A stretch of DNA of 34,123 bases. Source: Escherichia coli (GTDB lineage Bacteria > Pseudomonadota > Gammaproteobacteria > Enterobacterales > Enterobacteriaceae). This document shows positions 31,143 to 33,612 of the stretch, in pieces. The translations under genes were made by a program, and so were the position numbers. Within the stretch, counting starts at the first letter, position 1. Each line of letters begins with the position of its first letter. The stretch lies in assembly GCF_003334385.1 (NCBI RefSeq), contig NZ_QOWN01000047.1, one strand, 5' to 3'. The notes below the pieces were generated by a model that saw only the letters and a program-made list of their open reading frames with translations, did no database searches and was not told where the DNA came from.

Positions 31143-31177
31143 CTATCAATTTGTCATTTCAATTACGCGAAATTTAT

Positions 31178-32158
31178 ATGAACGCAATAATATCGCCTGA
31201 TTATTACTATATTCTTACCGTTGCTGGTCAGTCTAATGCCATGGCGTATGGCGAAGGACTGCCATTACCGGACAGGGAAGATGCGCCTCATCCCAGAATT
31301 AAACAATTAGCGAGATTTGCGCATACGCATCCCGGAGGCCCGTCATGTCACTTTAACGACATTATTCCACTGACTCACTGCCCACACGATGTTCAGGATA
31401 TGCAGGGTTATCACCATCCTCTGGCAACGAATCATCAAACACAGTACGGCACCGTTGGCCAGGCACTGCATATAGCACGGAAATTACTGCCCTTTATTCC
31501 TGATAATGCAGGGGTTCTCATCGTTCCGTGTTGCCGTGGCGGATCGGCTTTTACCGCGGGCAGCGAAGGGACATATTCAGAACGGCACGGAGCCAGCCAT
31601 GATGCTTGTCGTTGGGGAACGGATACTCCGCTATACCAGGATTTAGTCAGCAGAACGCGAGCCGCACTGGCAAAAAATCCGCATAACAAATTCCTCGGCG
31701 TATGCTGGATGCAAGGCGAATTTGACTTAATGACCAGTGACTACGCGTCACACCCTCAACACTTTAATCATATGGTTGAAGCCTTTCGTAGGGATCTAAA
31801 ACAATACCATTCTCAGCTTAATAATATTACTGACGCACCGTGGTTTTGCGGCGATACCACCTGGTACTGGAAAGAAAATTTCCCTCATGCGTATGAAGTT
31901 ATTTATGGCAATTATCAAAATAATGTTTTAGCCAATATTATTTTCGTCGACTTCCAGCAACAAGGTGAAAGAGGACTGACGAACGCGCCTGATGAAGACC
32001 CGGACGATTTAAGCACGGGATATTACGGTTCAGCGTACCGGTCACCGGAGAACTGGACGACGGCACTGCGAAGCAGTCATTTCAGCACGGCAGCCCGTCG
32101 GGGGATTATTTCTGACAAGTTTGTAGAAGCAATTTTGCAGTTTTGGCGCGAAAGGTGA
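31178..32158 (+). CDS. nanS: Probable 9-O-acetyl-N-acetylneuraminate esterase NanS
   Basis: ORF 31151-32158 (TTG-initiated in the track); ATG at 31178 (MNAIISPDYYYILTVAGQSNAMAYG) gives 326 aa with SGNH-like GQSN motif. Confidence 0.85.
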   Translation: MNAIISPDYYYILTVAGQSNAMAYGEGLPLPDREDAPHPRIKQLARFAHTHPGGPSCHFNDIIPLTHCPHDVQDMQGYHHPLATNHQTQYGTVGQALHIARKLLPFIPDNAGVLIVPCCRGGSAFTAGSEGTYSERHGASHDACRWGTDTPLYQDLVSRTRAALAKNPHNKFLGVCWMQGEFDLMTSDYASHPQHFNHMVEAFRRDLKQYHSQLNNITDAPWFCGDTTWYWKENFPHAYEVIYGNYQNNVLANIIFVDFQQQGERGLTNAPDEDPDDLSTGYYGSAYRSPENWTTALRSSHFSTAARRGIISDKFVEAILQFWRER

Positions 32159-32165
32159 GCGTTCA

Positions 32166-32816
32166 TTAATTTGATTTATTCGCATCCATCAGCGCTTTTA
32201 ACTGCTCCGGCGTAAACGGTGGTTTGCGTCGGTGCAACATCGCATGGCAATTAGGGTACACAGGCAGCAAATCATTAACTGGATCCAGCTGGTAATCCTC
32301 TTTGATGGCTGACAGCGGCACCAGGTGATGCACATGGATAAAGCCTTCAGCGATATCACCATAGATCTTCACCAGATCAACACCGCATACGTTGCACTGG
32401 CATCCATGATGTTCGACCGCTTTATCTCGGGCCTTTTTATCGCGTTCATAGCGGTTTACTGTCACCTTTATCGCCGCACCTTCAAGGTATGTCTCCTGCG
32501 ACGGCAACTCATCCGGGAACAGAACGTCGGCTATGGGAGCCGCAGCGGCTTTATCCAGATGAATATGAAATCCCTGCTCTATGAGTAGCTTGACACATTT
32601 AGATTTTATTCCGCCGGTGAAATCCGCAGGGGTAAATTGCGTCCCCGTCATCAATGTCGCTGCGATGCCAGCAATCGCCTTCGAGGGGTAACGTCGGCCA
32701 TGATATTCAATCTCATACAACCGCGCAGGCTGGAACTGATGAGTTTCTCCCGCATCCCATAAATGGATAGCTTCGATGATATACCGCCGCGGAAGATGAT
32801 CAGGGAGTTTATTCAT
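32166..32816 (-). CDS. HNH endonuclease with N-terminal putative modified-DNA (possibly phosphorothioate) sensing domain; candidate type IV restriction enzyme
   Basis: 216-aa ORF. C-terminal HNH signature read directly: CQCNVCG ... HVHHLVP ... NDLLPVYPNCH. N-terminal about 120 aa contains RRYPSKA (Y-P-x-x-A), reminiscent of the sulfur-binding cavity of SBD domains; the SBD assignment is inference. Confidence 0.6.
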   Translation of the reverse strand: MNKLPDHLPRRYIIEAIHLWDAGETHQFQPARLYEIEYHGRRYPSKAIAGIAATLMTGTQFTPADFTGGIKSKCVKLLIEQGFHIHLDKAAAAPIADVLFPDELPSQETYLEGAAIKVTVNRYERDKKARDKAVEHHGCQCNVCGVDLVKIYGDIAEGFIHVHHLVPLSAIKEDYQLDPVNDLLPVYPNCHAMLHRRKPPFTPEQLKALMDANKSN

Positions 32817-32919
32817 GGAGAATGTCCTTATACGTTCTCAGAACAGGCAGCAAAAAAACAAATGAGATCAAGGTAATATATCTTCACTTGCAGGCTTGAA
32901 CAGCAGAAAATTTGCGAGC

Positions 32920-33138
32920 ATGATCGCAATTATTTCACTGCCAGGGATATCAATAGCTTCCAGTAAATCGCTACAGCAGGCAATTGCCAATATAAAAATC
33001 TGGCACAAGGGTGAACAGCGCGCGCCGCATAAGCCATTGTTATTGCTATACGTATTAGCGGGATACCTGAATGGACATCCGCGCCTTTTCGATTATTGTA
33101 GTGGAACTGTCTACGAGGATGCAGTTCGAAGTGAGTAA
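32920..33138 (+). CDS. Hypothetical small protein (possible gene remnant), divergent from the HNH gene
   Basis: ORF 32896-33138 (TTG in track); first ATG at 32920; no recognisable domain. Confidence 0.25.
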   Translation: MIAIISLPGISIASSKSLQQAIANIKIWHKGEQRAPHKPLLLLYVLAGYLNGHPRLFDYCSGTVYEDAVRSE

Positions 33139-33161
33139 GTAAAGGTTGCTGGAAACGATCA

Positions 33162-33380
33162 ATGCCGCCATACAATGATTTTTTAGGATCAACAATGAGT
33201 AATAAAAACTACGAAAGTCACCGCAAAGCGATTGTTAGTAAAGGTATACCACCCGCTCTATTAAATAGGCTCACCAATTCGGATGTTCAGGTGATCAATA
33301 CCTTCTTAACACGAGTGAGCAAACTGGAACTATCTCAACAAGAGAAAGACTGGATCATAAAAATCATCTCTATGGTTTAG
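33162..33380 (+). CDS. Hypothetical small protein
   Basis: 72-aa ORF; an internal ATG preceded by AGGA would give 61 aa; different frame from the preceding ORF; no recognisable domain. Confidence 0.25.
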   Translation: MPPYNDFLGSTMSNKNYESHRKAIVSKGIPPALLNRLTNSDVQVINTFLTRVSKLELSQQEKDWIIKIISMV

Positions 33381-33581
33381 ACAATTTCAGCCTTGTAGCC
33401 TTTCAAGGGTTTTGTGTGGGTACAAACATTATCGAATCGGGGTATAGCCGCAGCTGTAGCTGTATCCACATCAGTAAGTTGATGTAGGTTGACTTAGGTT
33501 GAGCGAAAAATAGCGAAAAGCCTTGTGTGGCGCGGATTTCAGTCATAAAAAAACGTCCGTTGATGTCTATTGATGTTCCGA

Positions 33582-33612
33582 TGGTGCGAAGGTGCGAAGG
33601 CCGGACTCAAAC
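33582..33612 (-). repeat. Degenerate copy of the tRNA-Leu (leuX) 3-prime end; putative island attachment-site remnant
   Basis: Minus-strand read GTTTGAGTCCGGCCTTCGCACCTTCGCACCA matches the T-arm/acceptor 3-prime end of leuX (GGTTCGAGTCCGGCCTTCGGCACCA) with one deletion and an 8-nt tandem duplication; no complete tRNA is present. Confidence 0.55.

Follow-up and report, generated by a model that had tools for sequence, protein, structure and literature searches.

A Decayed leuX 3′-End Remnant as the Probable Distal Attachment Site of a Genomic Island in Escherichia coli

In the general model of tandem accretion, islands accumulate at a single tRNA gene, as exemplified by the pheV islands. PAI II536 carries hly/prf virulence cargo, is bounded by short perfect direct repeats, and shows measurable excision. 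The leuX gene is among the island sites used most frequently in Escherichia coli, and Fec/Ag43 leuX islands have been catalogued (PMC7545054); for PAI II536, excision, transfer, and specific reinsertion at leuX via a P4-like integrase have been shown experimentally (PMC3202238). Phage P4 itself uses attP and attB sites in leuX (NC_001609; Pierson and Kahn 1987), with a 20-bp core and an ATGTTT arm as found here.

The locus described below lies near the end of a 34,123-nt stretch of E. coli DNA (contig NZ_QOWN01000047.1; hereafter the window). With PAI II536, PAI-S88-leuX, PAI-ED1a-leuX, and KpLE2 it shares the tRNA gene used, a P4-like integrase, and direct repeats of the tRNA 3′ end, although its distal repeat, unlike that of PAI II536, has decayed. 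Three differences separate it from P4: the element past the remnant is a large island of the Ag43/CbtA/fec type, the core is imperfect (a missing G and an 8-bp repeat), and leuX islands, unlike P4 attP, duplicate a terminator box of ~50 nt. Its likeness to tandem accretion lies in the displaced tRNA 3′ end followed by what appears to be the proximal arm of an earlier element; it departs from that model in that the older element is down to an arm of ~190 nt, perhaps with 1.2 kb of defence-gene debris, and that its integrase has been precisely removed.

We conclude, with a probability of about 0.87, that a P4-family tyrosine integrase inserted an island into the 3′ end of leuX, the gene for tRNA-Leu(CAA), and that the segment is the distal attachment site (attR) of this island. 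The remnant is a scar of a known and ordinary type, with nothing new about it except the small curiosity of a variable repeat; the main value of the analysis lies in correct annotation, and the current view of tRNA-linked islands is unchanged.

The Remnant and Its Similarity to leuX

The features at the remnant are as follows.

33582-33612, remnant; plus-strand letters tggtgcgaaggtgcgaaggccggactcaaac, reverse complement GTTTGAGTCCGGCCTTCGCACCTTCGCACCA
33582-33608, minus strand, decayed attachment core (probable attR), corresponding to the 20-bp P4-type core GAGTCCGGCCTTCGGCACCA, the leuX 3′ end
33585-33600, 8-bp tandem repeat in two copies; plus strand GTGCGAAG GTGCGAAG, minus strand CTTCGCAC or TTCGCACC depending on register
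33534-33581, minus strand, relic of the leuX transcription terminator box (TCGGAACATCAATAGACATCAACGGACGTTTTTTTATGACTGAAATCC), with a decayed hairpin

On the minus strand the remnant reads GTTT GAGTCCGGCCTTCG-CACC TTCGCACC A; compared with the core, one G is absent and one extra 8-bp unit is present. The deleted G changes CTTCGGCACC to CTTCGCACC, and 19 of the 20 core bases are kept in order, plus the 8-bp insertion. Because of the absent G, an ungapped search with the 24-mer from the leuX 3′ end (three or fewer mismatches) found no match in the window, and a gapped alignment was required. In gapped local alignment, leuX alone scored 34 against the window (shuffle maximum, 27), and leuX with its 3′ flank, taken from NCTC11121, scored 95 (shuffle maximum, 31), aligning over 33612-33534. 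The exact 14-mer GAGTCCGGCCTTCG occurs once in the window and in none of 100 shuffles. The similarity to leuX is genuine, far above chance, and reaches well past the 31 nt originally flagged, for a total homology of ~220 nt made up of the core, the decayed leuX terminator, and a stretch homologous to the arm upstream of an integrase, apparently that of an older island.

The matched stretch coincides exactly with the 20 bp annotated as the attP core in phage P4. In P4 attP the core, itself intact, is preceded by ...TTTGATGTTT, with the arm bases ATGTTT. The GTTT of the remnant resembles a C-to-T change of the tRNA GTTC, the tRNA-derived part beginning at GAGTCC; since GTTT also precedes the core in P4 attP, it is an arm base of the element rather than a mutated tRNA base.

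The remnant represents no more of leuX than its last 24 nt and lacks the cloverleaf of a tRNA gene or tRNA pseudogene. ARAGORN predicted no tRNA gene in the whole 34-kb window, and no Rfam family matched at E ≤ 1 within 32000-34123. The first-pass annotation, made from the letters and their open reading frames, had described a degenerate leuX copy of ~25 nt lying about 200 bp past the last small ORF, with an internal 8-nt tandem duplication and no complete tRNA. The alignment with the NCTC11121 sequence bears out the copy, and its position (a gap of 202 bp from the ORF end at 33380), the 8-mer occurring twice, and the lack of a complete tRNA were all found as described. The length was put too short by about threefold, the core and terminator together spanning ~79 nt, and the copy is degenerate in its missing G and 8-bp repeat but not in the C-to-T mismatch.

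The relic box is ~90% identical to the box found 3′ of intact leuX in NCTC11121, PO06101, and ML775. Boxes after intact leuX comprise at least three alleles, a (K-12, HCP6S3), b (NCTC11121, PO06101, ML775), and c (SC475), and consist of a hairpin, a T-run TTTTTTT(A/G), and then a terminal TGCCTGAAATCC. On folding, these three leuX-adjacent types give -13.1 to -15.7 kcal/mol, with stems that differ and are each stable. The relic box in the window belongs to type b but carries two changes that disrupt the stem, and its folding energy is only -1.6 kcal/mol, in keeping with a terminator left without a tRNA to terminate. Each island seems to bring its own box, which makes the flanking direct repeat about 70-80 nt long instead of about 20. 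Within the sequence extracts the box (~50 nt) lies at 2491-2540 in K-12 (L003), 8062-8111 in NCTC11121 (L002), and 5086-5140 in L015.

The Junction and Its Flanks among E. coli Genomes

Positions 33100-34123 were compared by megablast with 5,426 complete E. coli genomes. Matches to the left side only stop at 33600 and those to the right side only start at 33591, so that the presence/absence break between strains coincides with the junction; the 10-bp overlap of the two families of matches, CCTTCGCACC, lies inside the remnant. The 142-nt junction of the window was found in 20 genomes at E ≤ 1e-40, 11 of them 100% identical, and the left flank adjoins differing elements in different strains: an island of the Ag43/CbtA type, a P4-like satellite prophage (strain E10), and, in T16R, a truncated island. 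For the final 2 kb of the window, no exact match was found in the collection. Genomes with two copies of the 8-bp unit, otherwise matching at 99.9%, align only to 34088, probably owing to a short indel (~12 nt by annotation offsets) just before the DUF957 gene.

On the island side of the remnant, the following features were recognised.

33609-33680, minus strand, right-hand (distal) island arm, which meets the core with ...AATCATGAGGTTAAGTCACATGTTT
33613-34123, minus strand, distal end of the leuX island, coordinates mapped from the NCTC11121 annotation
about 33752-33880, helix-turn-helix regulator fragment, within the island side
about 33856-34005, DUF4942 fragment, within the island side, without an NCBIfam match
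from about 34102, 3′ end of a DUF957 gene, within the island side

The same arm adjoins the core in the O6:K2:H1 strain and in A3024, where the outer flanks differ. Beyond DUF957, relatives carry DUF5983, a CbtA/YeeU toxin-antitoxin, Ag43, fec, and other genes, and the DNA to the right of the remnant is a distal end conserved across a widespread type of island. The P4 gene set (alpha primase-helicase, epsilon, delta/ogr, psu, sid) is not present on the island side of the window, being found only in E10, and the window's element is not a P4-like satellite prophage.

The leuX gene and integrase belonging to the window lie outside it, and this part of the account rests on close relatives. In PO06101, which has an identical 142-nt junction, leuX is 85.7 kb away and adjoins an intact tyrosine integrase of 414 aa, and the cargo between includes the Dpd 7-deazaguanine system, fec, Ag43, and CbtA/YeeU. 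In NCTC11121, a slightly different relative, leuX lies 27.9 kb from the junction, and the integrase, truncated next to an IS3 element, shares 54% identity with P4 Int (E = 3e-120). In both genomes leuX is on the strand of the remnant, and no further copy of the core was found between the island ends. The Fec and Ag43 cargo found in relatives agrees with that of the catalogued islands PAI-S88-leuX and PAI-ED1a-leuX. The difference in island size between PO06101 and NCTC11121 looks like the result of IS-mediated deletions. A copy of ISEc23 (IS66 family) abuts a truncated DUF5983 gene in NCTC11121.

A chimeric query, consisting of intact leuX joined to the left flank of the window, was used to search for an unoccupied site. 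In a stricter search (at least 99% identity), only one genome of the 5,426, HCP6S3_I1, has leuX joined to the flank: ahr and leuX are followed directly by the left flank, with neither integrase nor island, and beyond the flank come the restriction-endonuclease fragment, the HNH gene, nanS, nanM, nanC, and fimB. The terminator box of HCP6S3_I1 is of the K-12 type (a), as against box b for the relic in the window, and this arrangement may be a secondary deletion rather than an ancestral empty site.

A core copy, its orientation, an integrase (in the relatives), a presence/absence break, and an unoccupied arrangement, features by which an attR is recognised, were found. They agree with the first-pass proposals that the partial tRNA copy is the direct repeat at the distal end of an island (the break falls inside the core, and the leuX 3′ end stands opposite) and that this island extends from the remnant to leuX beyond the window. 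The three checks suggested there (alignment to leuX, a matching repeat beside leuX with an integrase gene, and comparison with an empty leuX site) each favoured this interpretation.

The P4-like prophage of strain E10, 12 kb in length, occupies the very junction seen in the window, and no other element separates leuX from the left flank there. The core of its attR has the missing G and three 8-bp units (6486-6520 of the extract). Given that this core is decayed although P4 attP is perfect, recombination with a pre-existing relic is suggested rather than insertion into a clean site. That the prophage occupies a secondary site, in tandem with another island, was considered and rejected, only the 12-kb prophage being present between leuX and the relic. 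In the second E10 extract (L013), positions 1037 and 13298 were recorded for the prophage. In T16R, a deletion joins a fragment of an Ag43-like (ESPR domain) gene straight to GGCCTTCGCACC... (about 6487-6510 of the extract); its endpoint inside the attachment core hints at integrase-mediated illegitimate recombination.

On the left side of the remnant, the window carries uxuR-uxuBA, gntP, fimH to fimB, nanC, nanM, and nanS (31151-32158), in that order, followed by the features below.

32162-33394, variable DNA between nanS and the relic arm, K-12 synteny ending at 32161
32166-32816, minus strand, intact HNH endonuclease gene (216 aa)
32896-33138, plus strand, N-terminal fragment (80 codons) of a restriction endonuclease that binds phosphorothioated DNA (NF045808, E = 1.7e-16)
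33162-33380, plus strand, 72-aa ORF without an NCBIfam match, the last small ORF before the remnant
33395-33533, minus strand, putative remains of an older island's leuX-proximal (attL) arm, homologous to the stretch from terminator box to integrase ATG

Homology with K-12 stops exactly at the nanS stop codon (32161), and none was found between that point and the remnant. In K-12 MG1655 no distal copy of the leuX core was found with three or fewer errors over the 49 kb from leuX to fimE. With no distal core and with homology ending at the nanS stop, K-12 is unusable as a reference for the junction; its leuX element, which we take to be KpLE2, has no detectable attR.

With the chimeric query, about 320 genomes gave matches of 81-95% identity that covered leuX plus about 190 nt. 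Two of the matches (H32, H33) show 81-85% identity over query positions 1-272, and in O103 ML775 and in SC475 the matched stretch runs straight into an intact integrase gene of 421 aa; in alignment, the terminator box and integrase-upstream arm of the ML775 and SC475 islands run collinearly with the flank of the window. The homology of the arm ends at the expected integrase ATG, at 33395 of the window, from which it follows that the integrase gene of the older island was lost. Native chromosome as the identity of the left flank was rejected, because ~320 genomes carry a related arm leading into an integrase gene. Judged by these alignments, the site appears to be the junction of the current island with the relic of an older one, and we infer that the genes of 32162-33394 are probably leftover cargo of that older island. 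A full-length gene of 278 aa, with the same product annotation as the endonuclease fragment, lies inside the island near leuX in both NCTC11121 and PO06101.

The nanS gene of the window is an uninterrupted ORF of 335 codons. At the same position RefSeq has only a partial "sialate O-acetylesterase" pseudogene in several close relatives, which is possibly an annotation artefact.

Proposed Order of Insertions and Alternative Readings

The following mechanism would account for the junction. The integrase would recombine the 20-bp core of its element with the identical end of leuX, the element bringing a fresh tRNA 3′ end and terminator beside its integrase, and the previous tRNA 3′ end, with whatever lay behind it, being displaced to the far end of the island. 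The DNA displaced in this case would be the proximal end of an earlier leuX island, that is, its terminator box and integrase-upstream arm. Of that older island only the proximal arm would have survived, possibly together with the HNH and endonuclease remains, before a newer island entered the regenerated leuX by tandem accretion. The relic of the older island would accordingly span 33395-33581, perhaps reaching to 32162, and the current island would begin past 33612 and run towards leuX. No longer under selection on the tRNA end and terminator, the displaced copy has decayed, with one G lost, an unstable 8-bp repeat gained, and the terminator hairpin gone. The order of the two insertions is one that we infer. 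The missing G is common to attR copies with unrelated outer flanks (the O6:K2:H1 strain, A3024), and this sharing, the attR of E10, and the mismatch of boxes a and b together point to repeated recombination among att copies, implying a history with more such recombination than a simple two-step model holds.

An alternative, implicit in the first-pass annotation, is a single insertion that left a simple attR bordering ancestral core chromosome, so that the DNA to the left would be native backbone. The left flank does behave as the stable side, being constant beside several different elements and beside intact leuX in one genome. Yet from the core to 33395 it is 81-85% like the arms that lead from leuX to an integrase ATG, and the likeness stops exactly at that ATG; nothing between 32161 and the remnant is held in common with K-12; and the intervening genes are fragments of the defence type. 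We therefore consider this reading unlikely. Chance similarity, or a decayed duplicate tRNA pseudogene with no link to mobile DNA, has a negligible probability: nothing but the shortness of the segment originally flagged speaks for it, and against it stand the alignment score so far above the shuffle maximum, the restriction of the copy to the last 24 nt of the tRNA, beginning exactly at the P4 core, and a synteny break at the same point.

For the preferred reading, an attR next to an older relic, two consequences can be drawn for annotation. The remnant shows where the leuX island of this strain ends distally, and, if the stretch from remnant to nanS is debris of an earlier island, the core genome reaches only to the nanS stop codon rather than to the tRNA remnant. 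Compared with attL, the 1-nt deletion and 8-bp insertion would probably impair precise excision.

Variation of the 8-bp Repeat

Copy number was counted with one query per unit number, the arm and flank unchanged; the counts are approximate, as the identity bands also hold partial matches to other arms. On this basis one unit occurs in about 2-3 genomes, two units (the allele of the window) in 20, three in about 457-485, and four in about 32-50. With arm and flank otherwise unchanged across one to four copies, replication slippage is the simplest cause, and it is most likely the one responsible.

The repeat could also be a by-product of the recombinase, with staggered cuts or misaligned strand exchange adding a unit at each integration or excision. 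It lies within the 10-bp overlap of the two match halves, where the crossover must have happened; its length of 8 bp fits the range of tyrosine-recombinase overlap regions; and the T16R deletion endpoint falls within the core as well. Against this, junctions that are otherwise identical differ in having one, two, three, or four copies, a hallmark of plain tandem-repeat instability, and neither an experiment nor a precedent was found for a footprint of this kind, so that we hold a recombinase origin to be improbable. A stronger form, in which the repeat is an integrase strand-exchange footprint that duplicates the overlap and whose copy number (1-4) records or tunes how tightly leuX islands are locked into the chromosome, is very improbable.

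Three copies is the commonest state of the repeat, the two copies of the window being a minority allele, and the variable repeat might serve as a candidate marker for strain typing.
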